Positions 22,272 to 42,464 of a stretch of DNA of 64,000 nt are shown here, one piece after another. Location of the stretch: the IMG/VR virus record IMGVR_UViG_3300014204_013127, one strand, 5' to 3'. A program made the translations under genes and the position numbers. The stretch is from a virus (Duplodnaviria > Heunggongvirae > Uroviricota > Caudoviricetes). Numbering within the stretch: the first letter of the stretch is position 1; each line of letters begins with the position of its first letter. Below the pieces are notes generated by a model, which saw only the letters and a program-made list of their open reading frames with translations, made no database searches and was not told the DNA's origin.

Positions 22272-22618
22272 GGGGGTGAATAGAATCGAACGACGGTTTT
22301 AGCCCTTGAGTTGCATGTCATGGCTGACCAACAGGCCATGTAAAAAAGTTGGTCAAAAATTTAGTTGCTAACGATTACGTTGCACTGGCTGCGTGAGTGG
22401 CCACGGGTTGAGGAAGCTCGCCAAGGCGTCCAAAAACCCGTCAAAAATTTGGCTGCGTTCAATGTAGATGGCGTAAATTGAACTAAGATAACGCCGATAG
22501 GTCGTATGAGCCTTTGCTTGCTGTGGCTTATACAGACGACATAAACGGCAAGATACACATGTAGAAACTCATTGGCGTGCCGTGCGTGACCTGGGTGCGA
22601 TTCCCAGCACCTCCACTA
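22272..22618 (+). ncRNA. ssrA: tmRNA (SsrA), standard one-piece form; tag reading frame GCT AAC GAT TAC GTT GCA CTG GCT GCG TGA = ANDYVALAA
   Basis: The 5' GGGGGTGAATAGAATCGAACGACGG parallels E. coli GGGGCTGATTCTGGATTCGACGGG. The 3' end has T-stem CTGGG/CCCAG, loop TGCGATT and acceptor strand CACCTCC-A (22608-22615). That strand pairs with GGGGGTG (22272-22278) and includes the G3:U70 wobble that is the Ala identity element. The tag ORF at 22367-22396 ends in ALAA plus a stop. Confidence 0.8.
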
Positions 22619-25850: not shown

Positions 25851-26861
25851 ATGTCAGTTGAGAGTCAGCGAATATTAAATGATATTTTGGAAAAAAAAGG
25901 TAGCACCATCAATTTGGGGGCTATTATGACCAAGATGCCCAGAAATTCTCAAAACCCCTATGCTATAATGGATGAAGAAGAAGAAAAATTTGGACGTATG
26001 ACACAATGGACCACATCTGATGGTACTCGTTTCTTTCCTGCTGGAAAGACATTTCCTTTGCTATGTCCAGGTGTTTATGAAATTAAATTTTCTAACACCA
26101 AGGGATATTATTTTGAGAAGGTGCAGGTAAAAACAGAAGGGTTATTACGGTTTCCTGATAGCGAATCCGCAAAGGTTGTGGCAGAGATTCAGAACTTCTG
26201 GACAAAAGAGCAAACCTATGCCGATTTTGGGCTCACCTATCGCCGTGGATTGATTCTGTGGGGTCCAGCGGGTTCTGGCAAGAGTTGTACCATTCAGATC
26301 GTTATGGCCGATGTAATTGAACGTGGCGGCGTTGTGTTCAAGTTTAATTCTGTGCCTCATATGTTTTTGGAGGGGGTGCGATTATTCAGAGAAGTGCAGC
26401 CTGACACAAAGATTGTGGTATTGATGGAAGACATTGATTCCTTGTTGGAAGAGTACGGAGAGTCGGAGGTGCTCAATATTTTGGATGGTGTTGAGAAAAT
26501 TGAACGGGTGGTTTTTTTAGCAACCACGAACTATCCAGAGAAATTGGGGGATCGAATTATCAATCGTCCTTCCAGATTTGACAGAAGATTTATGATGCCC
26601 AATCCCAATAAGAAATGCAGACAATTGTATTTCGAGCATTTAGCGAAACAAAACCCCACCATTAAAATTGATATTGCCAAATGGACAAAGGATACGAGTG
26701 GTTTTTCTATTGCACATTTGAAAGAGTTGTTTATTGGGGTGTGCATTTTAGGAGAAGAATACAAGGATGCCGTGGAAACATTGAGAATTATGATTGAAGA
26801 GCGTCCCAAATCTGACGAGAGTGATGGATTTGGGTTTATTCCCAAGAAAAATGAGGACTGA
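25851..26861 (+). CDS. AAA+ ATPase
   Basis: Walker A GPAGSGKS, Walker B IVVLMEDIDSL and an SRFDRRF arginine-finger-like segment. Confidence 0.65.
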   Translation: MSVESQRILNDILEKKGSTINLGAIMTKMPRNSQNPYAIMDEEEEKFGRMTQWTTSDGTRFFPAGKTFPLLCPGVYEIKFSNTKGYYFEKVQVKTEGLLRFPDSESAKVVAEIQNFWTKEQTYADFGLTYRRGLILWGPAGSGKSCTIQIVMADVIERGGVVFKFNSVPHMFLEGVRLFREVQPDTKIVVLMEDIDSLLEEYGESEVLNILDGVEKIERVVFLATTNYPEKLGDRIINRPSRFDRRFMMPNPNKKCRQLYFEHLAKQNPTIKIDIAKWTKDTSGFSIAHLKELFIGVCILGEEYKDAVETLRIMIEERPKSDESDGFGFIPKKNED

Positions 26862-27388
26862 TGATGGAAATCATAGCCAAGCCAGGATATTTTGGCAAGG
26901 ATCGGACAAAGTGGGAGAAAATGTTTGATGCTTATTGTGGCGAGGGAAACTGGCAAGAATGTTGGGAGTTTTATGATGAAATTCTTACATTTAATGAGGC
27001 TGTTCTTTTGTATGATGTTTCTTATTTGCTGTATATAAAGGAAGATAAATATAGTATTTTTCATGGCATGGCCAGCCAATACAGAGACTGTTATGACAAT
27101 GATCCATCGAATGTAGTTTCTGGATGCAATCATGACACAAAGGCTGTGCCGAGGCATATTCAGGACGTATCTGTACGCCGGGCATTTCGGGCACTGGGGA
27201 TGCACTTCAATCCCAATGCTGAAAAATTATTGGAAATTAGAGGGCTTACCAGTTCTGGTTATGAGTTAAGTCCCATGAAGGTGCCATTTGTGTATCCAAA
27301 TGCTATTACAGGTGGCCCAGCGAGGGAATGGGCTGGAAAGGGCACAGTAGAAGAGTTTTGGCAAAGGAATAAGGTAATTGTATGTTAA
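26861..27388 (+). CDS. hypothetical protein
   Basis: 175-aa ORF whose start overlaps the upstream stop. Confidence 0.35.
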   Translation: MMEIIAKPGYFGKDRTKWEKMFDAYCGEGNWQECWEFYDEILTFNEAVLLYDVSYLLYIKEDKYSIFHGMASQYRDCYDNDPSNVVSGCNHDTKAVPRHIQDVSVRRAFRALGMHFNPNAEKLLEIRGLTSSGYELSPMKVPFVYPNAITGGPAREWAGKGTVEEFWQRNKVIVC

Positions 27389-27855
27389 AAATGGTTTGTA
27401 GTGGTGCCCAGACGGGGGCGGATTTAGGTGGGCTTATAGCCGCCGAGAAATTTGGGATAAAGACTGGTGGTTGGTGTCCCAAAGGGTGTAAAACAGAAGC
27501 TGGGACAAAACCAGAGTTGATTGAACGTTTTGGGCTTTGGGAAACCAATACGGATAGTTATGTGCCCAGAACTCACGCCAATGCCAAGATGGGCGATGGC
27601 ACAATACGATTCGCATTTGATTTTGACTCGGCGGGTGAAATATTGACTTCTCAATCTTGCAGCAGGTTTGAAAAACCAATCATTGATGTGGATGTGGAGA
27701 ATCCACGACCTGTGCAAGAGGTTGTGGATTGGATAAAGGAACACAACATAGAAACACTAAATATAGCCGGGAACAGAGAGAGTAAATATCCAGGGATGGA
27801 GAAGTTTGTTGTGAATTACCTTGGACAGGTTTTCACAACATTGGGTCATACATGA
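27382..27855 (+). CDS. SLOG-superfamily protein (molybdenum-cofactor-carrier/YpsA/LOG-like nucleotide-binding fold)
   Basis: CSGAQTGADLGGLIAAEKFGIKTGGWCPKG matches the GG.TGvD...l..A...gi..gGwcPkG signature of the MoCo-carrier-like SLOG family. Confidence 0.5.
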   Translation: MLKMVCSGAQTGADLGGLIAAEKFGIKTGGWCPKGCKTEAGTKPELIERFGLWETNTDSYVPRTHANAKMGDGTIRFAFDFDSAGEILTSQSCSRFEKPIIDVDVENPRPVQEVVDWIKEHNIETLNIAGNRESKYPGMEKFVVNYLGQVFTTLGHT

Positions 27856-28580
27856 AGATAATAATAGTAATTCGCCAGGATCAAGTATGGTCTCGTCAAT
27901 ATTTTCCATCTAGTTTTTACACAAAAGTATTTAGAGCAGAATTAGTCATTGACACATGGAATTCTTTGTTCAATATACCATATCACGAATTTAGAATTGC
28001 ACTACACGAAATACAGAAAGTTAATTTAGCGGACATTCAGGCCGATCTTGTCGTTTATGAAAATGATCCAAAAATGCAGGGTTTATTGAGAGATGAAAAT
28101 AATCTAATCTTACCGATTGATGATGATGATTGGTTTGATCCAAATATTTGTTGTGTTTTAAAATCTGCACAATTTGGAAGATTTATTAGGTGGCATTATT
28201 TGCGTTATTTTTACGGCAATTCCGTGCAATTGGCTAAACATCCATTTCCGACTTATCTTTTTGACTATCAAAGCAATAATTACGCATTCAGAACTCCTGC
28301 TAATTGGGATATGTATGGGCATGATGGCTCGGCAAATGACAATATCCCACGAGCAGAAGAGACATATCTTGAGCAAATATTATCAGTGCATAATTTCAAC
28401 CCATCCTCTTTGTCTGGTTATTTTAATCAACCAGATGTAAGAGATGTTATGGTTAAATCATATCGTTATTTTGATTGTGAACAATCGGAGCAAATGCAGC
28501 AAATGCCCAGTTGTTTTCATAAATATTCATTATTAATGTTTGATTTGTGGAAGCGATTAAAATTATTGAAAATGTTATAA
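27852..28580 (+). CDS. hypothetical protein with DXD-like motif (possible GT-A glycosyltransferase)
   Basis: LILPIDDDDWFDPN; otherwise uncharacterised. Confidence 0.3.
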   Translation: MKIIIVIRQDQVWSRQYFPSSFYTKVFRAELVIDTWNSLFNIPYHEFRIALHEIQKVNLADIQADLVVYENDPKMQGLLRDENNLILPIDDDDWFDPNICCVLKSAQFGRFIRWHYLRYFYGNSVQLAKHPFPTYLFDYQSNNYAFRTPANWDMYGHDGSANDNIPRAEETYLEQILSVHNFNPSSLSGYFNQPDVRDVMVKSYRYFDCEQSEQMQQMPSCFHKYSLLMFDLWKRLKLLKML

Positions 28581-29617
28581 TGCTTAAAATTGAACAAAGT
28601 AAATTCACAAAAAGAGCCGTTTTATACATTGGGTTTAAATGTAATTTAAGATGTAGATTTTGCTACTATGCAGATAATGTAACCGTGCCTAAAGAGTGGT
28701 ATTCTTTAGATTGTTGCAAAAGGGATGCTCATACTTTTAGGTCTGTATACAAAAATAAATTTGTAGACATTACTGGTGGAGAGCCAACCATCTATCCAGA
28801 CATTTTGCAATTGGTATCATATTGTAGAGAGATTGGACTAAGGCCAACCATTATAACAAACATGCAAGCTCTTGCCGATCTGGATGTTGCCAAACAATTT
28901 AAGGATGCTGGAATAGAGGATTTTTTGTGTTCTGTTCATAATTTGGGGGTTGCTTATGATGATGTCGTTGGTGTGAATGGCAGTTTTTCCAGGGTTGAGA
29001 AGGCGTTAGATAATTTGGTTCATTTGAGCATACCATTTCGCACAAATGTCACTATCAATAAAACTAATTTTAAAGCTTTAAAAAACATAGCAGAATTTGT
29101 ATACACAAAGGGGTGTCGCACAATCAATTATATTTCCTGTAATTTATTCAGAGATCATGATGAAACATTTGATTTAATAGCTCGTTTTTCTGAAATGAAA
29201 GATTGTTTACATGAGGCATTAAATTATTGCGATATACACAGCATGCATACTGCCGTAAGGTATATGCCATTTTGTTTTCTATATGGGCATGAAAACAAAT
29301 GTTATAATTATCGACAATTACCATATGACAACTACGAGTGGGATTATAAATCTTGGTCGGATGTAAACTCTTCCGCACCTGCACCAAAGGTGTCAAGAGG
29401 TTTGTATAATTTCATGGAAGACTCAGGTGCGTATGAACATTTGGCCAAAGTTTTTACGGGAGAAAGCTACACATATTCCCCCAAGTGCATGGATTGTAGA
29501 TTGTCTTTAATTTGTGACGGATTAAACAAGAATTATGCAAGAAAATTCGGAACAGAAGAGGTTTGTCCATGTCCTGGCGACAAAATAACAAAACCTGATG
29601 AATTTCTTGCTAAATAA
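28547..29617 (+). CDS. radical SAM enzyme with C-terminal SPASM/twitch-like Cys cluster (rSAM-1)
   Basis: The CNLRCRFCYY CxxxCxxC motif and the ITGGEPT glycine-rich SAM motif are present. The C-terminus reads CMDCRLSLICDG...CPCPG. Confidence 0.7.
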   Translation: MEAIKIIENVIMLKIEQSKFTKRAVLYIGFKCNLRCRFCYYADNVTVPKEWYSLDCCKRDAHTFRSVYKNKFVDITGGEPTIYPDILQLVSYCREIGLRPTIITNMQALADLDVAKQFKDAGIEDFLCSVHNLGVAYDDVVGVNGSFSRVEKALDNLVHLSIPFRTNVTINKTNFKALKNIAEFVYTKGCRTINYISCNLFRDHDETFDLIARFSEMKDCLHEALNYCDIHSMHTAVRYMPFCFLYGHENKCYNYRQLPYDNYEWDYKSWSDVNSSAPAPKVSRGLYNFMEDSGAYEHLAKVFTGESYTYSPKCMDCRLSLICDGLNKNYARKFGTEEVCPCPGDKITKPDEFLAK

Positions 29618-29620
29618 AGT

Positions 29621-30433
29621 ATGCTCAGTATTGTTGTTTTATACTCTACAGATCGTCACAGACAGCTTATTAATACGATTGATTGTCTGAATGATATGGA
29701 TTATGTTGCCACATGTGAAAAAATTTTATGTGTGGATGGACAAACAGACATACATCCAGAGGGGTGGAGAGTTTTAGAGATAGAGAGAAGAGGAAAGTTT
29801 TATCGGCTTGGCGAAGCCCTTAATGCAGCCATTGAGGCCAGTAGTGGCAATCACATATGGTACTTGGACAGCGATAGAATTCTTCCTACAAACTTTTTAA
29901 ACAATGCATCATTGATAGAAGATGGATTGTTTATCTTTCCCAAATATCTGTTTTCTTTTAAAGAAGATGTAGATATTTCTTCTATACGAATGGTGAGAGA
30001 TAATCCATATAAGCATGAGTCTTTATTGGTGCCGGATCATAGGGTAGAAAATGTAGATATTGTGGGGCATAAAAACCCGTTTGCTGGATGCGTATTGTTT
30101 GCAAAAAAAACTTATTGGGAATATGGGGGATTTAGTGCTGATTTTGAGGCATGGGGGTATAAGGACTATGATTTTTGGAGAAAAGCTATTGTTTGTGGCG
30201 GAAGATTTTTACCTATTGATTGTGTGGAGTTGCATCAAAAACACAATCTTTCCGACCAAAGACTTTATGACTTAAGCAATGTGTGGAGTTACTATTATTA
30301 TTGTAGCAAGTGGAAACTGCCCATTGATCCAAAAATCAGGGTATATGCCGGTCATTTACACCCTGAAAAACACAAAACATTGGATGATTTTTTATCTAAT
30401 GTGGTAGATAAAAATGAAGTGAAATTTAACTGA
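29621..30433 (+). CDS. GT2/GT-A-like glycosyltransferase
   Basis: N-terminal SIVVLYSTDR, then DXD-type WYLDSDRILP. Confidence 0.45.
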   Translation: MLSIVVLYSTDRHRQLINTIDCLNDMDYVATCEKILCVDGQTDIHPEGWRVLEIERRGKFYRLGEALNAAIEASSGNHIWYLDSDRILPTNFLNNASLIEDGLFIFPKYLFSFKEDVDISSIRMVRDNPYKHESLLVPDHRVENVDIVGHKNPFAGCVLFAKKTYWEYGGFSADFEAWGYKDYDFWRKAIVCGGRFLPIDCVELHQKHNLSDQRLYDLSNVWSYYYYCSKWKLPIDPKIRVYAGHLHPEKHKTLDDFLSNVVDKNEVKFN

Positions 30434-31239: not shown

Positions 31240-32307
31240 ATGATAGAAACAGTAGAGCAAGTGCTGCAATCTTTGGATGAAATCAGAACATTTTTGACAA
31301 AATGTAAAGTTTGGGATGCCCAGTTTAAAATTCTACAATTAAAAGATTTGTTACATAGTGAAAGTTGGCCTGTTGCGGTGCCCCAAGAACTAATATGCAT
31401 GGAATCTGAAGATGATTTATTTGAACGTGCCGATTCAATCATTAATTTCTCTAATTGGGAGGTTGATGGCAAAAAGTTCTTAGATTTTGGTTGTGGCTTA
31501 GGACATGTTGCTGTTGTGGCTTCTCAGTTGGGATCACAAGCAGCAGGGTACGACATTGTGGAGAGTTCTTCTTTTGAGTGGGAAAAAGAGGGTAAGTATT
31601 TATTGACCACTAATTTTGATAAAATTAAAGCAATGTCGCCATTTGATTTTATCATGCTTTATGATGTTCTAGATCATTCAACTGATCCTGTAGGCATCCT
31701 AACCAAAGTAAGAGAGGTAGCAAATAAAAATACAGATATTTTTGTTCGTTGTCATCCGTTTTTATCAAGACATGGTGGACACTTATACAAACATATCAAT
31801 AAGGCTTATGTGCATTTAGTCTTTACAGAAGATGAGTTGCAAGAAATGGGATATGGTTTCGAAGGAAATTTTCAGAAAACAAATCAGCCACTAGTGACTT
31901 ATAGAGATTGGTTTAAACAGGCAAATTTATCGATAGTTGTGGAAGATGTTGTGCAAGATGTTTTGGAGCCATTTTTTAAAAAAGGCGTGGTTAAAGAGCG
32001 AATGCCCAAGTTTTCTTTTGATGGAGTTTGGGAACACTATGTTAATGGTCGAAAACACAGACGATTTGTGGCTTATCCAAATGGAACATTAAACACTCCA
32101 CAAGGTCCAGAAACTTGGTCCATTGATGGTTTAAATCTCAGTCTTAGATGGCCAACAGACAAAGGTATTTGGCGGGACGAATTAAAATTAAATGAAGATA
32201 TGACTCATTATGAGGGAACCAATCAAATAGGATATAAAATAAAAGGCGATAGAATAGAAAACATTAACAGTAGTTTTATTGATTTCACACTAAGGGCATA
32301 TGATTAA
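31240..32307 (+). CDS. class I SAM-dependent methyltransferase
   Basis: LDFGCGLGHVAVV is motif I (hh[DE]hGxGxG); an acidic motif II follows about 20 aa downstream. Confidence 0.6.
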   Translation: MIETVEQVLQSLDEIRTFLTKCKVWDAQFKILQLKDLLHSESWPVAVPQELICMESEDDLFERADSIINFSNWEVDGKKFLDFGCGLGHVAVVASQLGSQAAGYDIVESSSFEWEKEGKYLLTTNFDKIKAMSPFDFIMLYDVLDHSTDPVGILTKVREVANKNTDIFVRCHPFLSRHGGHLYKHINKAYVHLVFTEDELQEMGYGFEGNFQKTNQPLVTYRDWFKQANLSIVVEDVVQDVLEPFFKKGVVKERMPKFSFDGVWEHYVNGRKHRRFVAYPNGTLNTPQGPETWSIDGLNLSLRWPTDKGIWRDELKLNEDMTHYEGTNQIGYKIKGDRIENINSSFIDFTLRAYD

Positions 32308-32970: not shown

Positions 32971-33618
32971 ATGTATTTAGAAGTTTTTACATCTTGCGTG
33001 GGTTATAGTGATTTTTTGGATGTGTGTTTATATTCAAACAAAAAGCATTTTGACAGATGGGTAATCATTACTTCGACAGAAGATGTGGCAACCAAGAGTG
33101 TGTGTAAAAAGCATCAAATAGAATGTGTTGAATCAAGTCGATTTTATGAAGGCGGTGCAGCATTTAACAAAGGTAAGGGACTAAATGATGCCATAAGTTA
33201 TTTGGATAAAAAAGATTGGATGCTTGCTTTAGACGCAGATATCATTCTTCCAGATAACTTTAGGGAAATAATCGAAGGATTGACTTTAGATAAAGAGTTT
33301 TTATATGGGGCGGTAAGGTATGAAATTGACAATATTTCTGGCAAACAAATGTATATTGATGGTGACAACATGCGTATACTTGGGTTTTTTCAGTTGTTTC
33401 ATGCTACGAGGCTAAAATACTATCCAGAAGATTGGGACACTGCTGGATGGTATGATGATGTGTTTGCAGATTACTGGGATTCTAAAAAAACATTACAAAA
33501 GTTGGTGATACAGCATATTGAGCATGGTGTGAGAACAACCAATTGGGAGGGCAGGAAATCCAAGCCTTTGTCGAAGACGGAAATAGGATCATTAAAGAAG
33601 TTGATTATAAAATTGTGA
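32971..33618 (+). CDS. DXD-motif glycosyltransferase-like protein (paralog B)
   Basis: LEVFTSCVGYSDFL...KKHFDRWVIITS...LALDADIILPDNFRE; tandem duplicate of 32300-32968. Confidence 0.4.
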   Translation: MYLEVFTSCVGYSDFLDVCLYSNKKHFDRWVIITSTEDVATKSVCKKHQIECVESSRFYEGGAAFNKGKGLNDAISYLDKKDWMLALDADIILPDNFREIIEGLTLDKEFLYGAVRYEIDNISGKQMYIDGDNMRILGFFQLFHATRLKYYPEDWDTAGWYDDVFADYWDSKKTLQKLVIQHIEHGVRTTNWEGRKSKPLSKTEIGSLKKLIIKL

Positions 33619-34729
33619 TGCCAGAATATGATTGGTAAGGAATGTTATTGGAATTGCGGTAAAAGCAAATTAGTTTTCTTCCAATTACGAGATATTTGTT
33701 TCTTACAAAATTAGTTCTACCTTCAAACAATGTGTTGATGGCATCTTTGTCATGTTGTGATATATTTCCAATATATAATATATCAATAGTTTCTTGCCCT
33801 GTTTGAACAAACTGAAGGTTTAAATAGCAAGAATCTAATTTTTCTATAAAACTTGGTTCGTATATTATTTTATTGTTTATTTTTATTGCATTGTTGACAT
33901 GCGGTATAAATTTGAAGTTTAAATATGACTTTCCACAATTACACACTCTGACTTGCGGATTGATTTCAAATAAATCATCAGATTCAATTTGATTATTTGC
34001 AAGATTGATTAAGCTTGTGTTTCCAGAAAAAGTTGGAAAAAAATGCAATGTGCGAAATGGGCAGGTGTAAAAGTTAGATGTGATTGACCAATCAACCATG
34101 TTGTTATTAAGGTGGATCGAGGATGGTATTTTGCTGGATTTGAAAAAAGGCTCCCAATCTAAAGTACGGATAGCAAGTATTTTGTCTTGTTTTAAGAACT
34201 CTAAGAAACTTTTTTGTTCTAATAGAAAAAGTAGTGTATTAGAGACGGTGCTGATAGTGATTGGCTCTTTTACGCTATGAAGGAAATTTATCAAAAAAGA
34301 TAGGGCATTGTTTTGGTCCCAATAAAAAATGCCAGCATAATCCATAAGAGAATTATCTTTAACACGCATAATAGCATTTTTTTTATCTCCGCAAGGAAAC
34401 ATTGATTGAATGTATATTGTTTTCCCTATGCTTGGCTTGATTGCAGACTCCATGCTATTGATCCAAAAATCGAAAAACGGACCAAATTTATATTCCCGAG
34501 GTATATTTGTGGAGCCATTTGTCCTTAGAGAAATTGAACTAAAATTTTTACAATCCTCACGGGCAGCTTTTACATCTGAAGCAAAATCGACATAATCGCA
34601 AAAGTTATAGGACTGAATTTCTTGCCATAAAAGTTTGGCACTTTCAAGGGTTGGGTTTTTGTAATATTGATTATAACATTGCAAAAGATTCATTAGGTTA
34701 TTGAAATTGTATATACGGGGCAAGCACAA
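33605..34729 (-). CDS. hypothetical protein (Asn/Ser-rich, TTG start per the ORF track)
   Basis: 374 aa, minus strand, downstream of rSAM-2 and the small peptide. No recognisable motif. Confidence 0.35.
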   Translation of the reverse strand: MCLPRIYNFNNLMNLLQCYNQYYKNPTLESAKLLWQEIQSYNFCDYVDFASDVKAAREDCKNFSSISLRTNGSTNIPREYKFGPFFDFWINSMESAIKPSIGKTIYIQSMFPCGDKKNAIMRVKDNSLMDYAGIFYWDQNNALSFLINFLHSVKEPITISTVSNTLLFLLEQKSFLEFLKQDKILAIRTLDWEPFFKSSKIPSSIHLNNNMVDWSITSNFYTCPFRTLHFFPTFSGNTSLINLANNQIESDDLFEINPQVRVCNCGKSYLNFKFIPHVNNAIKINNKIIYEPSFIEKLDSCYLNLQFVQTGQETIDILYIGNISQHDKDAINTLFEGRTNFVRNKYLVIGRKLICFYRNSNNIPYQSYSGITIL

Positions 34730-34863
34730 ACATAGCCAGCAGTAGAATTTGAATTGGTGCCCGCATTAATTTCCATACACAAGCACTCGTCCAGCAATTG
34801 TTGTAGTTTTTCTGCATCTGGACACTCAAAAGTGATTTTTTCTGCATCTGTTAGTGTTGTCAT
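34696..34863 (-). CDS. small Cys-containing peptide (56 aa) immediately downstream of rSAM-2; candidate precursor peptide
   Basis: Hand translation of the minus strand gives MTTLTDAEKITFECPDAEKLQQLLDECLCMEINAGTNSNSTAGYVCACPVYTISIT. The ATG (34861-34863) lies 12 nt after the rSAM-2 stop and is preceded by AAGGA. It is not in the ORF track because it is under 60 aa. Confidence 0.4.
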
Positions 34864-34875
34864 CATTTTTTTTCC

Positions 34876-36018
34876 TTAGCATAGTTTGTTGTCATTGGCC
34901 ATTTTTTGTATTTGGTGTTGAAGAGCTACTGGATCGCAAAAATTGCTTTTTCCCCCAACAAAATCCAACATCGCACAGCTTCCCCAGCAATACCCTGCTG
35001 CTTGACACTTCATGCATTTTGTGTCATTTAGCAAGGGCATGGTTTTTAAAATTAGGTCATTTCTTCTCTCTATGATTGTACTCAAACTATCTGATAAATT
35101 TCCTATCTTTGTATATGTATAATAATCGCTAAATATATTTTCTGTATAGTCGGTTAATAATACTTCATGTCTGTATTTACAACACCATGTAGGCGTGAAT
35201 ATAGGTTTTAACAATATATCAGCAAAAGATTTGGTGGTTTTCCTGCACTCGGAATGTGGTCCGATAAGCCCTATGTTTATTTGTTCAGGTTTAAATCCAA
35301 ACTGAAGAGCAAAGAGATAATATTCTTTTCGTAGTTCTGGTGTATTGGATGCATCGCCAAAAGAAGCTTTCAAATTGATTTTGTGCCTCAGTCCTTTGGT
35401 TATTAATATTTTCAAATTATTGGTTGTTTTTTCAAATGGACTCCAATTACCTGTGAGTGGTATTCTTTGTGCATCGTTCAACAAATCATTACCACCATCT
35501 AAACTAATGCTTAGTTGGCTTAATTTTTCAATTAAAGATAATCTTCTTTCATTTAGATCAATCGTTAGATTAGAGACCATGCCTATGTGTAAAATGTTTG
35601 CATGAGATTTGATCTTGTCTATAACTTCATGGCATTTTTCTTCTTCCAGTAGGTTTTCTCCACCATAAAAAAATATGCAGATATCTTTGACATTAGATCG
35701 TATTATAAAATCACAAATTTTATCAACATTTAATGGTTTTTGTTGCTTTGCTTCTAAAAGATGCGAGAAGTTGCAGTGTGTGCATCGTAAGTTACATTCC
35801 AATGTTGGTGCTATGTTAAAGTTTAGAAACTTTGGGGGGTCATGAATTATCAACAATTTCAACAAGGACTCTCTTTCTTGTCCCGATAAAAACAAATTGG
35901 ACTCCAACTCGTCAAAGGTCGCAGAAATGGGCAGTTGTTGCCTTGTGAGGGTGTTAAAATAGACTTTTTCCCCACTCTCATTGACAGTTTGGCAGACATA
36001 AAAAGATAGGTTTTTCAT
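34876..36018 (-). CDS. radical SAM/SPASM enzyme (rSAM-2) with ~80-aa N-terminal extension
   Basis: The CNLRCTHCNF CxxxCxxC motif is present. C-terminal CMKCQAAGYCWGSCAM...FCDP fits a SPASM Cys cluster. Confidence 0.7.
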   Translation of the reverse strand: MKNLSFYVCQTVNESGEKVYFNTLTRQQLPISATFDELESNLFLSGQERESLLKLLIIHDPPKFLNFNIAPTLECNLRCTHCNFSHLLEAKQQKPLNVDKICDFIIRSNVKDICIFFYGGENLLEEEKCHEVIDKIKSHANILHIGMVSNLTIDLNERRLSLIEKLSQLSISLDGGNDLLNDAQRIPLTGNWSPFEKTTNNLKILITKGLRHKINLKASFGDASNTPELRKEYYLFALQFGFKPEQINIGLIGPHSECRKTTKSFADILLKPIFTPTWCCKYRHEVLLTDYTENIFSDYYTYTKIGNLSDSLSTIIERRNDLILKTMPLLNDTKCMKCQAAGYCWGSCAMLDFVGGKSNFCDPVALQHQIQKMANDNKLC

Positions 36019-36040
36019 AATTTAAATTAGTGATTATCTG

Positions 36041-36069
36041 TTGATTTGATGCAAGCAAACTGATATAGT
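36041..36069 (+). promoter_or_regulatory. sigma70-like promoter TTGATT-17-TATAGT for the dnaE C-fragment (very short leader)
   Basis: -35 at 36041-36046 and -10 at 36064-36069. The ATG at 36082 is only ~6 nt past the predicted start site and has no SD. Confidence 0.35.
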
Positions 36070-36081
36070 GATAGTAGAATT

Positions 36082-38700
36082 ATGAGAGATTATAAAAAAG
36101 AGCTACAGTTGTTGTGCCAGCAAAAAATAGAGAGCTTAGGACTATGTTCAAACGCTCAATATGCAGATCGTCTGAAATTGGAGTTTAGACATATCGACTG
36201 GCAAGATGAGCACTATTATTTAGTGGATTTGTACGAAAGAAAATGTAAGTTTGCCAAAAATGAAAACAATATGTTGGTGGTCCATCTTTTAGGACTAGCC
36301 GATGAATTTGATATCAGCCAACCGCCAAAGTTTACGTTTATTGCCGAGTTCCCCGACATAGATTCAGATTTCTTGCCTGAAATTCAACAGTGGTTAAAAA
36401 ATGTCTGGGCTCCCCAAACCTTTGGGGCGGAATATGTTTGTAATATTGGTAATTATGCCACTTATGGCATCAAATCTGCTTTACAGGATATGGCCAGAGT
36501 TTATGGCTTGAGTCATGATGAAGTCAACACGGTTACCACCCAGATTGAAGATAAAGATGATGAAAATAAACCCATTACGTGGGAAAAAGCTTTGGAGCTA
36601 AACAAGGAATTGGCTGCTTATTGCGAGCAATATCCAGAGGTATATGATGCTGCCAAGCGATTGTATGGCAGGGTAAGGGGAATGGGCAAACATGCTGGTG
36701 GTTTGATTATTTCTAGCATGCCCTTGGCTGATTTTGTTCCATTGGTTGTGGACAAGCAAGGCAATCCGCTTTCAGCATGGACTGAAGGACTGCATGCTCA
36801 AGACTTGGCCCCTGTAGGATTGGTGAAAGTCGATGTATTGGTTATTACAAACTTAGTGCAAATAGCTAAGTGCTTGAAATTGATTCGTGAGCGATACGGT
36901 ATCGACAGGATGTGTAATTTAGAGGCACAGGATGATTGGTCGGACACAGAGAAGTACCAAAATGATCCTGATGCTATTGCTTTGGCAAACGAAGCAAAAT
37001 TAAAGTGCATTTTCCAATTTGATTCTCCCGGCATTAGGGATTTGGCAAAAAAGGGTGGTGTGACTTCATTTGATGATCTAGTGGCATTCACTAGTTTATA
37101 TCGTCCTGGTCCTATGGGCTCTCAACTCCACACCACCTATTGTAAGCGAAAAAAGGGCGAGCCATACGAGTTGCATCCATTGTTAAAGCCTATTTTGGAA
37201 AAAACATATGGGGTGATGTGTTACCAAGAACAGATCATGAAAATCTTCAATGTTATTGGGGGTTTTCCATTGCCTCAATGTTATAAAATTGTGAAGGCTA
37301 TTTCCAAGAAAAAAGGCGAGGTTTTCCAAAAAGCCAAAGTTCAATTTTTGGAACAATGCCAACAAAGATTGGATTATTCTGAGCAAGAAGCTAATGAATT
37401 TTTTGAGAGTATAGCAAAGTTTTCGGGATATGCTTTCAATTTAAGTCATGCTACTTCATATTCGTTTGTTTCTGCAATGCTGTTGTATTTGAAAGCTCAT
37501 TATCCTTTAGAGTTCTTTGCAGCTATTTTGAGTTGTGAAAAAAATGCTGACAAGATTAAAGAATACAGATTAGAAGCCCAAAGATTTGGGGTGCCGATCA
37601 ATCGTATTGATATCAATAAGTCGAAGGTTCATTTTGAAATTATAGACAATGAAATATATTTAGGGTTTGCGGACATTAAGGGTGTTGGTGATGAGGTTGC
37701 TGAAAAAATCGTGGCAGGACAGCCCTATAGTTCTTTTGTAGATTTTATGGAACGATTTGGCACTTATGCTGATGTTTTGAAGCCACTGATTGCTTTACGG
37801 GTTTTTTCTGATGAACCGATGGTTTTGTATGAATTTGCTGAATTCTATCGTTGCAAAAGCAAATCACGCAAAGATCGAGATAAGAGATATATTACTTCTC
37901 AACAAGATCGTCTAGATGAAATTATATCCTTAGTACAATCAGAATATGAGAAAATAATAGATGGCGATTGGTGTGCTCAGTTTAAAGACCTGAAGAAAAA
38001 GGAATTTATTGAAAAGCATAGTGCTATGTGTTTGGACGGCATGGCCGAAGATGTTTTTACAGCCATCAATCAATATAACAAATCTAAAGCCAACAATGAG
38101 AAAAAGGTAGCACTCGATACCGTTATCACAATGGATAATTGGAATCCATCGGGAAAAATAGATCACGAAATGCAGGTTTTATTATCACATCACTTGTCTA
38201 TTGCCGAAAACAAATATTATGGTTTTCCTTGGGATTATGTGTTGACGCAATCTCCTGATTATAAAGGAAGAACCTTTGAGGAGTTCGATATAGCAATTGC
38301 ACAGGGCGATCATGCCATTAAGCCGGTGGAGGTGCAGATAATAGAGAAGCCTCGAATTATGAAGTCTAAGAAAGGATACAAGGTCAAAGTTGTGGACGGC
38401 AATGGAAGAGCAGAAACTGTTACTATTTGGAAAGATGATTTTGAAAGATTTGAGGAAGAAATTGCTTGGTGGGAGCCGACATGCGAGTGGGGCAATTTAT
38501 TACAAATGAGGCTTAAAAAGCCTATGGGGGATTGGAAAGATTACACATTTGAAAGTTTCCCCAGAGAGCTTAGGAAAGAAATGGTGCCTAAGGAAAAAAG
38601 CCAAGATGGTCGTTTGAATGTTTTGCGTTGGCCGGAAAGTGCCATAGTCAAACAAGATGTAATAGATAAAATCAAGGAAGATTTTACTATTATAGACTAG
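36082..38700 (+). CDS. dnaE: DNA polymerase III alpha subunit, C-terminal fragment (palm catalytic aspartates onward, fingers, OB-like)
   Basis: FPDIDSDF is the PDFDVDF catalytic motif. GKHAGGLIIS matches GxHAxGvvI. YCKRKKGEPYELHPLLKPILEKTYGVMCYQEQIMKI matches the conserved fingers region. 872 aa, including an ~85-aa N-terminal extension with no DnaE counterpart. Confidence 0.8.
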   Translation: MRDYKKELQLLCQQKIESLGLCSNAQYADRLKLEFRHIDWQDEHYYLVDLYERKCKFAKNENNMLVVHLLGLADEFDISQPPKFTFIAEFPDIDSDFLPEIQQWLKNVWAPQTFGAEYVCNIGNYATYGIKSALQDMARVYGLSHDEVNTVTTQIEDKDDENKPITWEKALELNKELAAYCEQYPEVYDAAKRLYGRVRGMGKHAGGLIISSMPLADFVPLVVDKQGNPLSAWTEGLHAQDLAPVGLVKVDVLVITNLVQIAKCLKLIRERYGIDRMCNLEAQDDWSDTEKYQNDPDAIALANEAKLKCIFQFDSPGIRDLAKKGGVTSFDDLVAFTSLYRPGPMGSQLHTTYCKRKKGEPYELHPLLKPILEKTYGVMCYQEQIMKIFNVIGGFPLPQCYKIVKAISKKKGEVFQKAKVQFLEQCQQRLDYSEQEANEFFESIAKFSGYAFNLSHATSYSFVSAMLLYLKAHYPLEFFAAILSCEKNADKIKEYRLEAQRFGVPINRIDINKSKVHFEIIDNEIYLGFADIKGVGDEVAEKIVAGQPYSSFVDFMERFGTYADVLKPLIALRVFSDEPMVLYEFAEFYRCKSKSRKDRDKRYITSQQDRLDEIISLVQSEYEKIIDGDWCAQFKDLKKKEFIEKHSAMCLDGMAEDVFTAINQYNKSKANNEKKVALDTVITMDNWNPSGKIDHEMQVLLSHHLSIAENKYYGFPWDYVLTQSPDYKGRTFEEFDIAIAQGDHAIKPVEVQIIEKPRIMKSKKGYKVKVVDGNGRAETVTIWKDDFERFEEEIAWWEPTCEWGNLLQMRLKKPMGDWKDYTFESFPRELRKEMVPKEKSQDGRLNVLRWPESAIVKQDVIDKIKEDFTIID

Positions 38701-38729
38701 CTATATATGCTTGTCCTAAAGGAGGTACA

Positions 38730-38933
38730 ATGTTAGCAACAAGTGAAAAATCCTGCACTCAACAACGAAAATGGTATCCCAAGTTGTTTCGTATTTTGTT
38801 TAATGGATTGTTTTCCTTTGATGAGTGTGAAGTATTTGTTCGAACAGATGCTCCCCACGCTTGTCAGACTGTATTAGCAGATTTTAGTAGCGTTTGTGGT
38901 TGTAGTGGTTGTTGTAGCAATATGGTAGCTTGA
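38730..38933 (+). CDS. small Cys-rich peptide (67 aa) with C-terminal CGCSGCC cluster; candidate RiPP precursor
   Basis: A perfect AAAGGAGGT ribosome-binding site lies 5 nt upstream of the ATG. The peptide ends ...ADFSSVCGCSGCCSNMVA, and the rSAM/SPASM gene follows 12 nt downstream. Confidence 0.55.
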   Translation: MLATSEKSCTQQRKWYPKLFRILFNGLFSFDECEVFVRTDAPHACQTVLADFSSVCGCSGCCSNMVA

Positions 38934-38945
38934 TAAAGGGATAAG

Positions 38946-40277
38946 ATGTTTAAAAGGTATAAACTTTCTAAATACAACATATTGGTGCAGCATGAAGATG
39001 TTTGGTTATTGTACAACCAAGTGTCTGGCACATTGATAAAATTGAATGATCGATTAAAGGATTTTCAAAAAATAGCCGACAGCACATTATGTTTAAGTAA
39101 GTTCAAAAGAAAGCTTCGCAAACACAAATTTTTAGTGCCTGTTGATGAGGATGAGTTTGCAACTTTTCGACAAACTGATGTAGATCATCTTAACAACAAT
39201 CAAGAGAAGAAATTTGTCATTGTTGTGACTAGTCGCTGCAATGCAGCTTGTTTTTATTGTTATGAAAAAGAGTGCAAAGAATATTGCATGGCTACCGACA
39301 TGTCATCCGATGTACAAGATCAGCTTGTGCGATTTATTGACCATTGTATTTCTTCCACCCCTACAATAAATTTTTCTATAACTTGGTATGGCGGCGAGCC
39401 GTTGTTGTGCCCAAATATAGTATGTGATCTTGCCAAAAAAATTAAAGATGTTTGCAAAAATAGAGGGGTGAAATTCTCAAACAATATTATTACTAACGGC
39501 ACATTATTAGACAACGAAATGATAGATCGATTGCTGTCAATCAATTGTCGTAGTGTTCAAATTACTATTGATGGGATGCGTGAAATACATGACGCAAGAA
39601 GACCTTTAATTGGTGCCAACCCATCTTCTTATGACATTATTATGGAGAACTTAATTGCTGGATATTCTAAGGGATTGGAAATAGATGTGCGAAGTAATCT
39701 TGATTACTCAAACTCTGAACAATACAAGCAATTTTTAGATGATATATTAAACAAAGGTCTCAATCAGAGAAATTCTGCCGGTGGTATTGTTAATCCATCG
39801 CCAGCGATGACTCGATTTCCAAATCAATTGGGCATGAAGCAAGAAGATTTTGCCATTGTGACCAATGATACTATTCAAGCATTGAAAGGAAAGACAGAAG
39901 TATATAGGTTTCTTGCTCCTACCTTACCGGGGTGCATGAAGAATATGAGATTTTATTACACAATAGCTCCAAACGGTAATGTGACCAAATGTATTGGTGG
40001 AATAAGCGACGAAGACGCCATTGGAACCATATATGACATGAAACTGGCAGAGGAAGACAGTGCTATAGCAATTAGTCCCTGTGAAGATACGGAGTGTGTT
40101 CATTGCCCCATATTACCTAGTTGTGGTGGAGGTTGTGTAGAACGACACAAGAAATACAATTGTGAAAAATGCCATTATGGTGGTTGTCAAACAATTCGAT
40201 GGACTATCAATAATGCAATTGTAGGATTGTATTATTTCTTATTGCACAGAGGAGAACTCGGAGGAGATAAAGAGTAA
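38946..40277 (+). CDS. radical SAM/SPASM enzyme (rSAM-3), candidate peptide maturase
   Basis: CNAACFYCYE CxxxCxxC; C-terminal CEDTECVHCPILPSCGGGC is a SPASM-like Cys cluster. Confidence 0.7.
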   Translation: MFKRYKLSKYNILVQHEDVWLLYNQVSGTLIKLNDRLKDFQKIADSTLCLSKFKRKLRKHKFLVPVDEDEFATFRQTDVDHLNNNQEKKFVIVVTSRCNAACFYCYEKECKEYCMATDMSSDVQDQLVRFIDHCISSTPTINFSITWYGGEPLLCPNIVCDLAKKIKDVCKNRGVKFSNNIITNGTLLDNEMIDRLLSINCRSVQITIDGMREIHDARRPLIGANPSSYDIIMENLIAGYSKGLEIDVRSNLDYSNSEQYKQFLDDILNKGLNQRNSAGGIVNPSPAMTRFPNQLGMKQEDFAIVTNDTIQALKGKTEVYRFLAPTLPGCMKNMRFYYTIAPNGNVTKCIGGISDEDAIGTIYDMKLAEEDSAIAISPCEDTECVHCPILPSCGGGCVERHKKYNCEKCHYGGCQTIRWTINNAIVGLYYFLLHRGELGGDKE

Positions 40278-41342
40278 TTTATTGTCGCTGTTTCTTGGAG
40301 CATTCTCATATTGTTCTATTTGCACTGGTTGATGCAATAATCCTTTTAACACATCTTTTGTTATCAATACAGATGTCTCATTTTGCTGATCTATAAATAA
40401 GGTGATTATTCCTTTTTTGTTTTGTCGAATCATATACGGCACAGGTGTTTGATTTTTTGATTTAAGAAATGAAGATATAAATGATGTAATTGTATGTGGG
40501 TCACAAGGCGTTTTGTTATTATCCCAAAGACATTGTATAGACTTTCCTGTAAATTCTGTAAAGACCCTGCCATAAATGCCGCATTGGCAACTCTTTGTTT
40601 GTATTACGCCCAGATCATCGGTTTTACAAGAGGCGTATGGTTGGCTGTAATTGAAAAAATCTGTGCTTGTAATTTCGTTGTAGTTATTTTGTTCAACAAG
40701 ACATAATTCGTCATCAATATGTTTTGTTCCGTACCTGCATTCTATAAAGCTTAGCCCCGTATCCCACGCTCTCATTTTATCTATAACAGATGTGTATATT
40801 TTGAGTGATTTATCACGAGTGTCGTCAAACAAGGTCTCACAGCTAAACATAACCACACAGTTAAGTGGTGTTTTGTTTTCTGTGGCAAAATAAGACGCCA
40901 TAAAAGTAGATGGTGTCGTATAGACCAAATCTGGACATATTTGGGCAGTTATGTCATACGCTTCTTCCCACTGTTGTTTATTGGCATTGTAAGGGATTGA
41001 AATTGTATAAACATTGTTGTTTAGAGATGCAATAGTGGATGGACCATCAATGCTTAAAGACTGTGAATTGGCTGTTGACACCATCCATGCAATGCGTAGC
41101 CTGGGATTTAGGTTGTTTAGGTAACAAATTTTATTAAAATGATATTTTTCAATATTTACAAATTCAGGCACAGAATATTTGTACATTTTTGCACAACCAG
41201 TGGTTGTGCCAGAGGTATGTAAAACAACATTGTTTGTTGATGTTCCGGCCTTTTTTTTTAGGTAACGGAGAGCCACTGTTTGGTAATGTGTCAAATGTTC
41301 ATAATTGCGAATATATTGCGGAGATAATGGAGCAAATATCAT
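40239..41342 (-). CDS. adenylate-forming enzyme (ANL superfamily, PaaK/F390-synthetase-like)
   Basis: HTSGTTTGCAKMY resembles the [ST]SGTTGxPK AMP-binding P-loop. 367 aa, convergent on and overlapping rSAM-3 by 39 nt. Confidence 0.4.
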   Translation of the reverse strand: MIFAPLSPQYIRNYEHLTHYQTVALRYLKKKAGTSTNNVVLHTSGTTTGCAKMYKYSVPEFVNIEKYHFNKICYLNNLNPRLRIAWMVSTANSQSLSIDGPSTIASLNNNVYTISIPYNANKQQWEEAYDITAQICPDLVYTTPSTFMASYFATENKTPLNCVVMFSCETLFDDTRDKSLKIYTSVIDKMRAWDTGLSFIECRYGTKHIDDELCLVEQNNYNEITSTDFFNYSQPYASCKTDDLGVIQTKSCQCGIYGRVFTEFTGKSIQCLWDNNKTPCDPHTITSFISSFLKSKNQTPVPYMIRQNKKGIITLFIDQQNETSVLITKDVLKGLLHQPVQIEQYENAPRNSDNKLLFISSEFSSVQ

Positions 41343-41391
41343 AATTTTTTAATTTGCTAACTTTCTTATATAGAACAAGAAAGGGTTTTTC

Positions 41392-41796
41392 ATGACCTAT
41401 CAAGATATCGATCAATCTAATTTCAACGAATATTTTTTCAACATTCGGGAGCACCAGCCCAAACCAGGGCAGGTAATGGCTTGTTTTCACGCCGTTTGTG
41501 AGCTAATAAATGGCGAAGAAAAGAAATTCCTCATTCAGACATTGCAGCGTCCCAATTCGGCTCAATCCGCTGCCAACATAATGTCTAAACTATTTTATGC
41601 TAATAAGGAGAGTTCTTGGCATACCCCTGCTGAGATAGCCCAAGACCTATTAGATGGCATGTCAGAAGACGAAGTGGCTCAGAAGCCTTATGAGTTTGTT
41701 GCCGAGTTCTATTACTACACAGATAGGGAATGTGTGCCGCCTGATGATCCACAATGGGAGGTAATAGAATTAATAAGGCCGAAAATAAATAATTAG
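41392..41796 (+). CDS. hypothetical protein
   Basis: 134-aa ORF. Confidence 0.35.
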   Translation: MTYQDIDQSNFNEYFFNIREHQPKPGQVMACFHAVCELINGEEKKFLIQTLQRPNSAQSAANIMSKLFYANKESSWHTPAEIAQDLLDGMSEDEVAQKPYEFVAEFYYYTDRECVPPDDPQWEVIELIRPKINN

Positions 41797-41837
41797 AACA
41801 TATATATCTGTGACTAATTATTCGAGAGGTCAAAAAT

Positions 41838-42464
41838 ATGGCAAATATGTATTATCAAGATAGAGAAGAGCTAGAAAAATGGGCTCAAATTATAGAAAAA
41901 GCAACAGCAGATGGTAAGTTTAAGAATGCAGCAAATGTAACTCCTTCTCCCAAAACCTCCGAGGAAAGCTTCTTTGGGCTGCAAAATACGCACCCCACCG
42001 ATAAGCCAGCCGAGCAGGATGTTAAATATTGGAATCAAGTAACCAAAAAGGCAGAAAATCCTTCTGTTTTGAATGAGGCAATAGACCCCAAATTAGTCAA
42101 AGAATGGCGTCGTATGGTTGGGCTTTCTACAAAGGACATTGTAGAAAGCACCGAAGATGTTGCTAATGTGGCGAAAAGTATTGCTCAAACACCAAATCCC
42201 ATAAGACAAAATACTGTGGGTATGGATCAGTCTTTGGAGCCCGGTTCTTTGGGGCTGACTTTCTCCGAAGAAGATATCAAGAATTTGGATGCATTAAAAA
42301 TTCAATTGCACGAAATGGAGTGCAAATTAAATGCTTTTGAGAGTCGAGGGGAAAATGCTTCTAAATTTGAGAAACAAATTCAAGTTCTTAAAGGTAAAAT
42401 AGATGCTTTAAGCACAGCTATGACGCAAAGTTTCCCCTATTCTATTAGCCCACAGGGAGATTAA
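41838..42464 (+). CDS. hypothetical coiled-coil protein
   Basis: 208 aa with a C-terminal heptad-like region; immediately upstream of the fibre-like protein. Confidence 0.35.
   Translation: MANMYYQDREELEKWAQIIEKATADGKFKNAANVTPSPKTSEESFFGLQNTHPTDKPAEQDVKYWNQVTKKAENPSVLNEAIDPKLVKEWRRMVGLSTKDIVESTEDVANVAKSIAQTPNPIRQNTVGMDQSLEPGSLGLTFSEEDIKNLDALKIQLHEMECKLNAFESRGENASKFEKQIQVLKGKIDALSTAMTQSFPYSISPQGD

Follow-up and report, generated by a model that had tools for sequence, protein, structure and literature searches.

A three-gene cassette of a radical SAM enzyme, a small cysteine-bearing peptide and a divergent PaaK-like homolog that looks like a peptide-maturation pathway of a huge phage

On the minus strand of the virus record IMGVR_UViG_3300014204_013127 a gene for a radical S-adenosylmethionine (rSAM) enzyme is followed by a very short open reading frame (ORF) containing a few cysteines, which raises the question of whether the short ORF is a gene at all, whether it is the substrate of its neighbor, and what the two might make. 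We refer to the whole 64,000-nucleotide stretch that was analyzed as the window, and to the enzyme, the second of its kind in an original prediction made from the DNA letters, as rSAM-2. That prediction saw in the interval 34693-36018 a peptide-maturase pair; comparative analysis supports the small ORF as the cognate peptide of rSAM-2, but the unit is a trio, and the third gene, at 33605-34693, had been overlooked. The minus-strand segment 33605-36018 contains three tightly packed ORFs in about 2.4 kb and looks like a three-gene operon, of which the interval under study forms the upstream two-thirds. We think it probable that this is a maturation cassette for a peptide made on ribosomes and modified after its translation (RiPP), composed of a SPASM-type rSAM enzyme, a precursor peptide of leader and core, and a divergent PaaK-like adenylate-forming enzyme.

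The genes are closely interlocked. rSAM-2 (34876-36018, minus strand, 380 amino acids) ends in a TAA at 34878-34876 that is embedded in the sequence TAAGGA, and the Shine-Dalgarno-like AAGGA (34873-34877, minus strand) that overlaps this stop lies 6 nt 5' of an ATG at 34866 and 9 nt 5' of a second, in-frame ATG at 34863. The peptide gene (34693-34866, minus strand) thus encodes 57 residues from the first ATG, 9 nt past the rSAM-2 stop, or 56 residues from the second, 12 nt past it; the latter is the ORF originally predicted, and its coordinates, spacing, ribosome-binding site and translation were all exact. The same TAAGGAG layout is repeated at a homologous locus, L001. At the other end the peptide TAA and the ATG of the third gene share one base in TAATG (34695-34691), a 1-nt overlap by which the third gene is predicted to be translationally coupled to the peptide gene; protein record P0009 was called with the same third-gene start. 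Promoter and terminator scans of 33300-36400 gave nothing above shuffled expectation, and the G+C content of the region is about 35%.

The small ORF exactly fills the gap between rSAM-2 and the third gene, and when the 183-nt interval was shuffled an ATG-initiated ORF of at least 56 codons arose in 87 of 20000 trials (0.4%). It had been described as unannotated, and indeed no NCBI source lists it, but it is called as a hypothetical protein by IMG (57 residues) and by ENA/Logan (56 residues). The original prediction had staked itself on conservation of this frame among relatives, and conserved it is: a small ORF lies beside the rSAM gene or the third gene in 18 of 19 non-redundant loci, these being the loci with flanks sufficient to include both large genes, collected by following rSAM-2 relatives, the third gene, and alignments of rSAM proteins in metagenomes and IMG/VR. 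Outside these 19, a peptide ORF accompanies the third gene on the short contigs L018 and L023 and an rSAM gene on L010, which stops 38 nt beyond the peptide ORF. Every homologous small ORF has an AGGA or GGAG sequence 5-9 nt upstream. Synonymous and non-synonymous codon differences number 32:30 (L003 versus L005a), 33:17 (L005a versus L005b), and 33:30 and 23:24 in further comparisons of diverged copies; because the synonymous differences are as many as or more than those that change a residue, they fit purifying selection on a translated, constrained frame. On these comparisons the small ORF is a conserved gene, and it behaves as the cognate peptide of rSAM-2.

The family members vary from 56 to 137 residues in length, and their architecture resembles that of a precursor with leader and core. 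They share an N-terminal motif, roughly [FLM]-[TS]-[DE]-x-E ... I-x-x-[IL]-[LM]-[DE], which in the window peptide reads TLTDAEKITFECPDAEKLQQLLDE. This leader-like part is followed by a C-terminal half of low complexity and variable length, in which Ser, Thr, Asn and Gly abound and which contains a TNS motif in the subgroup to which the window peptide belongs, after which comes an invariant C-x-C that has often grown to CC-x-CC at the extreme C-terminus. The window has CAC here, and of the two cysteine pairs originally pointed out it is this one that is invariant in the family, whereas CLC is unconserved. The C-termini themselves are unconserved, with the window peptide ending ...CACPVYTISIT. 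Of the marks of a RiPP precursor, which also include a modified product, adjacency to a maturase and a conserved leader-like part with a variable core are observed, as is purifying selection. A hidden Markov model (HMM) of the peptide family finds one credible ORF only in the window, which is this peptide (E 6.6e-10), and searches with the peptide of Pfam, NCBIfam and PHROGs returned nothing credible. We note that three loci of one phage lineage encode tandem precursor genes (L005 5738-6294, L013 4426-4988, and L114 6142-6704), the copies of which differ at 33 synonymous and 17 non-synonymous codons and both keep the leader motif and a CYCGFC core.

The third gene is a constant partner too. 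A homolog is present within approximately 1 kb of the rSAM-2-family gene in all 19 of the loci with enough flank (19/19), even though the gene order varies between them (rSAM-peptide-ligase, peptide-ligase-rSAM, or ligase-peptide-rSAM). These comparisons show the trio to be a real and tightly coupled unit, co-inherited over about twenty mostly viral loci.

rSAM-2 itself matches the Pfam Radical_SAM model PF04055 at 39.5 bits, against a cut-off of 29.5. The CNLRCTHC sequence already recognized in it is present at residues 75-82, and the CX3CX2C signature (C75-x3-C79-x2-C82), which in the radical SAM superfamily binds the SAM-cleaving [4Fe-4S] cluster and goes with a partial TIM-barrel core, is invariant in 17 homologs. 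The family is a sparse one, with only seven detectable relatives, at 28-46% identity, among 5.8 billion clustered proteins. The best NCBIfam matches are all RiPP maturases, comprising PapB, HxsB, CcpM, lachnocin, geopeptide and DynA types, and a search of the PDB with a profile of eight homologs found CteB at 1.1e-17, followed by anSME, ChlB, SkfB and TigE. CteB is also the top Foldseek match of the rSAM-2 model, with an alignment nearly spanning both proteins, and the fold as a whole best matches SPASM enzymes.

Seven auxiliary cysteines are invariant in the 17 homologs (C279-C280, C335-x2-C338-x5-C344-x3-C348, and C361), and G306 is present in 16 of the 17. The SPASM-like C-terminus of the original prediction is therefore there in its second half, the Cx2Cx5Cx3C...C arrangement, but not in its first, where the standard Cx9-15Gx4C is replaced by the invariant CC279/280 ... 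G306 without a cysteine after the glycine. The standard motif likewise has seven cysteines, in another arrangement, and ligates two auxiliary [4Fe-4S] clusters. We read the C-terminus as a variant SPASM domain, and the model and alignments together give rSAM-2 the predicted fold and the putative cluster ligands of the peptide-modifying SPASM enzymes.

At its other end rSAM-2 carries an N-terminal extension, which had been put at about 80 residues; the rSAM core strand begins at about residue 64, and we find an extension of about 60. In an AlphaFold2 (AF2) model, with a predicted confidence (pLDDT) of approximately 78-88 over residues 1-50, it consists of strands at 8-12, 18-22 and 28-30 and helices at 35-41 and 48-56, a beta3-alpha2 domain in which L29, G46 and E48 are conserved across the 17 homologs. 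A RiPP recognition element (RRE, PqqD-like) is a domain of about 80-90 residues in which a three-stranded antiparallel sheet is followed by three helices, and which binds the leader peptide. The extension has these elements in the same order, it is partly covered when rSAM-2 is aligned in NCBIfam and the PDB with maturases that bear an RRE (TIGR04463, HxsB, SkfB, CteB), and it is about 40 residues shorter than the corresponding domain of CteB. It is plausible, from the model, that it is an RRE-like but truncated domain.

The third gene (33605-34693, minus strand) encodes 362 residues and belongs to a family of which 198 clusters at 50% identity were recovered when 1.84 billion representatives were searched exhaustively with an HMM, nearly all with members of about 360 residues. 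Among 112 aligned members W202, C211, H217, C251, C253 and K340 are invariant and D240 nearly so, and a motif S-N-G-S-T-x-G-x4-Y-x-F-G-P is strongly conserved; the window protein has TNGSTNIPR here, in the context TNGSTNIPREYKFGP. Enzymes of the ANL superfamily have a P-loop of the form (S/T)-(S/T)-G-(S/T)-(S/T)-G-x-P-K, an Asp that binds ribose, a catalytic Lys near the C-terminus, and a two-domain fold. The third-gene motif resembles this phosphate-binding loop, and the invariant Lys likewise lies near the C-terminus; the 'TE' and 'GRxDD' motifs have diverged. The assignment is transitive, passing from the third-gene family to a paralog family and from there to PaaK-type models. In hhalign comparisons the third-gene family scores 96.9% against another window gene, at 40239-41342, and 98.7% against the family of that gene (E 3.6e-16, 255 columns). 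That second family matches the phenylacetate-CoA ligase structures 9s3l (E 3e-4) and 4r1l, as well as TIGR02304 (F390-synthetase-related), a DVU_1553-type AMP ligase and PaaK, with NCBIfam scores below cut-off, and its members are named PaaK-like by JGI. The C...H and C-x-CG residues of the third gene also occur in the aligned 9s3l sequence. The third protein is best described as a very divergent, PaaK/F390-synthetase-like homolog of the adenylate-forming enzymes. A 436-residue protein upstream of the L010 rSAM gene was considered as a homolog and rejected, being unrelated (15% identity).

Two further genes are conserved neighbors of the trio. For a Pfam Methyltransf_23-type SAM methyltransferase (31240-32307, plus strand), 12 other non-redundant loci have a homolog no more than 5 kb from the trio, and in L007, L011 and L028 it overlaps the stop codon of the rSAM gene. 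For a Pfam GT2/Glyco_transf_7C-type glycosyltransferase (29621-30433, plus strand) 10 other loci do so within the same distance, with glycosyltransferase genes overlapping trio genes in L003, L005 and L008. In several loci such overlaps amount to a few bases. Their recurrence and overlaps suggest a larger conserved module, and the two are possibly tailoring enzymes of the same pathway. We note that methyltransferase and glycosyltransferase neighbors like those in the window segment 29621-33618 recur in L007, L008, L011, L015, L016, L019, L022, L025-L029 and L116; that the methyltransferase has a C-terminal motif HPFxSRHGGHLY...NKAY; and that the glycosyltransferase/methyltransferase block is headed by a third radical-SAM gene (28547-29617, plus strand, 356 residues; PF04055 2.9e-18, no SPASM-type match). 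Elsewhere, an extra 303-residue rSAM protein and an R2K ATP-grasp gene are encoded near the trio in L001, and an additional ORF lies between the ligase-like gene and the rSAM gene in L016 (6003-6563, minus strand, 186 residues) and in L029 (6710-7009, plus strand, 99 residues, Cys-rich and zinc-ribbon-like).

The original prediction regarded the trio's two upstream genes as a second, independent system within the window. A second system it is, and the two rSAM proteins are only 22% identical, but because the first cassette holds the same three parts the two are, by their composition and sequence, deep paralogs and not unrelated systems. The first cassette (38730-41342, mixed strands) lies 3 kb from the trio, beyond a DNA polymerase III alpha gene, and consists of a 67-residue Cys-rich ORF (38730-38933, plus strand) that ends CGCSGCCSNMVA and has a strong AGGAGG site upstream, the gene for rSAM-1 (38946-40277, plus strand), whose nearest models, TIGR04463 and CefB, score below cut-off, and the PaaK-like gene 40239-41342 (minus strand), which is convergent with rSAM-1. 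This layout is kept in relatives, where the rSAM gene has one or two small genes upstream and a GT7C-type gene lies nearby, and the 67-residue peptide is not matched by the rSAM-2 peptide-family HMM. Two rSAM-plus-ligase cassettes separated by about 110-120 kb are also found on other large viral contigs, in Ga0209189_1000025 (147 kb; L022 and L027) and in IMGVR_UViG_3300013121_000020 (354 kb; L115 and L116), with no peptide ORF identifiable beside the L027 copy. A distant relative of the 40239-41342 product, P0169 (28% identical; ENA ERZ21966605, 4757 bp), is encoded 240 nt upstream of a 76-residue PP-binding acyl carrier protein, a neighborhood that hints that this PaaK-like clade can load thiol carriers.

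The trio is predominantly viral in its distribution. Relatives are present on IMG/VR viral contigs of 90-354 kb, which were recovered by an alignment-based scan, a scan with the single rSAM-2 protein having given none. The cassette was found in no deposited phage genome: megablast of 33000-42000 against GenBank phages gave no match, tblastn with rSAM-2 gave only weak generic rSAM matches, and tblastn with the third gene gave none. Among 185,579 species, each represented by one genome, a full-length rSAM-2 relative is encoded on only two contigs, both from metagenome-assembled genomes (MAGs) of Acidobacteria. These copies (L032 3342-4655 and L033 1-1041) have intact CC and Cx2Cx5Cx3C motifs, and that of L032 adjoins an RND efflux pump; neither has a PaaK-like gene or a recognizable peptide within its flank, and they represent either mis-binned DNA or a branch of the family that is cellular and has other partners.

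The window itself looks like part of a huge phage, with strong PHROG matches, DNA polymerase genes and a transfer-messenger RNA (tmRNA), and its proteins are found on a 340-kb contig. NCBI labels this source contig of 340,072 bp (P0001, P0009, P0163) 'MAG: Proteobacteria bacterium', but it is probably a mis-binned viral contig because of its PHROG families, polymerases and tmRNA and the relatives on IMG/VR contigs. The tmRNA gene is full-length (22272-22618, plus strand; Rfam RF00023, 119.6 bits against a gathering score of 47), and ARAGORN gives its tag peptide as ANDYVALAA. Also encoded on the plus strand of the window are an AAA ATPase (25851-26861), a circularly permuted YpsA SLOG-family protein (27382-27855; PF12694, 4e-35) and a heptose-phosphate kinase/adenylyltransferase-like protein (418-1821).

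What, then, might the cassette make? Under the RiPP-type reading, the leader half of the peptide would dock on the N-terminal domain of rSAM-2, which would reductively cleave SAM, and the resulting 5'-deoxyadenosyl radical would abstract a hydrogen from a core residue. A bond could then form between the core carbon and the sulfur of one C-x-C cysteine, which auxiliary cluster I would hold, giving a thioether ring of the sactionine or ranthionine type, as with CteB and PapB. The ligase-like enzyme would use ATP either to adenylate a carboxylate and couple it to the peptide, or to couple a carboxylate of the peptide to an acceptor, and the neighboring methyltransferase and GT2-type glycosyltransferase might decorate the product further. 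Since the cassette includes neither a protease nor an exporter, the product presumably acts inside the infected cell or is freed at lysis.

Several observations weigh against this reading. The highest-scoring NCBIfam match of rSAM-2, PapB NF047865 (1.2e-15), reaches 57.6 bits where the curated cut-off is 340, and every NCBIfam maturase family (CcpM TIGR04068, SCIFF TIGR03974 and others) scores far below its cut-off, so that by score rSAM-2 belongs to no curated NCBIfam maturase family. Neither is there a Pfam SPASM match at an E-value of 0.1 or below, and with CC standing where the SPASM motif has its first half, the ligation of auxiliary cluster I may differ or be incomplete. The N-terminal extension is one helix short of a canonical RRE, and a profile of this domain alone retrieved noise only from the PDB, with no match to a known RRE. 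The third gene has no direct match in Pfam, NCBIfam, PHROGs or the PDB (the last searched with profiles of 6 and of 112 sequences), its W-x-T-G segment does not, in the alignment, keep the Glu that the 'TE' motif has in ANL enzymes, and its AF2 model, built on a 3-sequence alignment, is unusable at a pLDDT of 42. The gene lists of the window and of the fetched loci contain no nearby protease or transporter, and no leader-cleavage motif was found. The spacing between C-x-C and any conserved upstream residue varies, so no acceptor residue can be named, and the proposed chemistry is drawn from homology only.

A bolder reading is that the cassettes represent a largely virus-restricted class of peptide natural product with the PaaK-like ligase as a core enzyme, in which the rSAM/SPASM enzyme and the ligase act jointly on the C-x-C, for example by thioether formation and ATP-dependent S-acylation or carboxylate ligation, and the conserved methyltransferase and GT2 glycosyltransferase then add a methylated glycan. 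We offer this tentatively, as a possibility rather than an expectation. If true, huge phages would make a glyco- or acyl-thioether peptide in the course of infection, and the two cassettes per genome would yield different products.

Three other readings accept the peptide as genuine but assign it another role; the variable, duplicated cores and the nearest relatives of rSAM-2 agree less well with them than with peptide maturation. The first, which we consider unlikely, makes the peptide a thiol carrier or scaffold: the PaaK-like enzyme would make an acyl-adenylate and pass its acyl group to a C-x-C cysteine, in the place of the CoA thiol that PaaK itself would use, and the rSAM enzyme, methyltransferase and glycosyltransferases would work on the tethered group, giving either an S-acylated peptide or a molecule of lipid, acyl or glycan type. 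PaaK-type ligases normally transfer an acyl group to a thiol, the thiol pair is the only invariant core feature of the peptide, the acyl carrier protein beside P0169 belongs with a distant relative of the paralog, and the conserved glycosyltransferase and methyltransferase neighbors are often operonic with the trio. But the nearest relatives of rSAM-2 (CteB, anSME and ChlB) modify the peptide itself, long variable cores with much Ser, Thr, Asn and Gly, like precursors that duplicate and diverge, are typical of RiPP products and not of carriers, and no gene for acyl-chain or sugar-acid biosynthesis is consistently present.

Less likely again is a sacrificial role for the peptide, as the source of a small peptide-derived cofactor or metabolite in the manner of mycofactocin or pyrroloquinoline quinone (PQQ): the rSAM/SPASM enzyme would modify a few residues, the remainder would be trimmed off, and the small product would be glycosylated and methylated by the neighboring GT2 enzyme and methyltransferase. 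A peptide together with an rSAM/SPASM enzyme, a GT2 enzyme and a SAM methyltransferase does mirror MftA, MftC, MftF and MftM, the glycosyltransferase and methyltransferase genes are conserved near the trio, and the locus gene lists contain no exporter or immunity gene. But the peptide C-termini are unconserved, unlike the terminal Val-Tyr of MftA, and only the internal C-x-C is kept; those gene lists include no MftB-, MftD- or MftE-like gene and no peptidase, no mycofactocin model is among the best 25 NCBIfam matches of rSAM-2, and the PaaK-like partner is without counterpart in those pathways.

We regard it as very improbable that the small ORF encodes no substrate but a mini-protein of accessory or regulatory function, such as a partner of rSAM-2 that binds metal, with the enzymes acting on another molecule, for instance a sugar nucleotide or a phage protein. 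Its cysteines could bind metal and the neighborhood is rich in sugar-modifying genes, but a low-complexity C-terminal half in proteins ranging so widely in length, which keep just the N-terminal motif and C-x-C, is unlike a folded accessory protein, tandem diverging copies exist, and the peptide has no anSME-type C/S-x-P-x-R motif. The notion that the ORF is a chance open frame beside an orphan enzyme, to which its shortness, its lack of a known family and its absence from NCBI annotation might lend some color, is effectively refuted by the shuffling result, by a position, leader motif and cysteines that are kept where the rSAM proteins have just 28-46% identity, by the predominance of synonymous substitutions in several comparisons, and by the Shine-Dalgarno site at every copy. 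Formylglycine formation of the anSME type was rejected, because the window peptide lacks that same motif and has a leader/core design. Phage DNA hypermodification, suggested by the rSAM and glycosyltransferase context (PMC8989533), was set aside as a less probable function, since a conserved leader-bearing peptide has no place in it.

The trio looks like an undescribed kind of modified-peptide pathway. In the literature searched there was nothing joining PaaK, a precursor peptide and a radical SAM enzyme, and no rSAM peptide cassettes were described in huge phages. SPASM-type rSAM proteins are annotated in many phages, including large ones, and are uncharacterized as to substrate; the cassette offers for them a concrete and testable substrate in the form of a conserved peptide family, together with an obligate partner from a superfamily that was not found linked to RiPP pathways in that literature. 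A CC-variant SPASM domain working with a ligase is likely to involve new enzymology, and the compactness of the three genes makes heterologous reconstitution straightforward. If the products are real, then huge phages make their own modified, possibly glycosylated, peptides during infection, and it may be asked whether these serve in host takeover, competitor exclusion, or decoration of the virion or surface.

Compared with known systems, the trio would work most like sactipeptide or ranthipeptide maturation. The CteB/SCIFF system is the closest to rSAM-2 in both PDB sequence and Foldseek searches, and shares with it an N-terminal domain, in rSAM-2 putatively of peptide-binding type, an rSAM core, a C-terminal auxiliary-cluster domain, and a small Cys-bearing precursor encoded next door. 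In CteB a substrate cysteine binds at an open coordination site on auxiliary cluster I, and the reduced cysteine count of rSAM-2 and the cysteine pair of its substrate would suit a site of this kind. The two enzymes are nonetheless only about 16% identical and differ in the CC that replaces Cx9-15Gx4C and in the shorter N-terminal domain of rSAM-2; the SCIFF precursor has six spaced cysteines where here there is one invariant C-x-C, and CteB has neither the obligate PaaK-like partner nor the viral setting seen here. The likeness to PapB and the ranthipeptides of the freyrasin type comes from the top NCBIfam match. In cores that contain Cys, PapB-type enzymes link it to side-chain carbons through thioethers, but the window peptide lacks the repeated Cx3D-type motifs of PapB substrates, and ranthipeptide clusters usually carry a protease or transporter where this one has none. 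The anSME enzymes lack both a peptide-binding domain at the N-terminus and a precursor gene of their own, and their target motif C/S-x-P/A-x-R is absent from the window peptide.

The third gene is comparable to PaaK and F390 synthetase (TIGR02304, COG1541, 9s3l, 4r1l) in its P-loop-like motif, its Asp, its C-terminal Lys and its C...H...C-x-CG residues, but at about 360 residues it is shorter than the solved PaaK-like ligases (400-440 residues), and it has an rSAM/SPASM enzyme and a peptide as obligate partners, a combination that was not found in the literature searched. Mycofactocin is likened to the cassette by a small peptide and rSAM/SPASM, GT2 and SAM methyltransferase genes grouped together; its pathway has an MftA ending in Val-Tyr, an MftB chaperone, the rSAM enzyme MftC and an MftD/E/F set, whereas here MftB, MftD and MftE are absent from the locus gene lists and the peptide C-terminus is unconserved, and mycofactocin involves no PaaK-like partner and lacks the viral context of the trio. 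Finally, a RiPP-type peptide on a phage genome with a GT2-family enzyme nearby is known in the glycocin sublancin of prophage SPbeta. In glycocins, which are S/O-glycosylated bacteriocins, two nested disulfides hold a helix-loop-helix precursor that comes with its own GT2 S/O-glycosyltransferase and an exporter, and the bacteriocin clusters of the sublancin type lie in temperate phages and include exporter and immunity genes. Phage-borne biosynthetic clusters have been reported predominantly in temperate phages (bioRxiv 10.1101/2020.10.01.322628). The cassette described here differs from the sublancin type in having no exporter and in residing in huge, probably lytic phages of 90-354 kb, where it combines an rSAM enzyme and a ligase with an unrelated peptide family.

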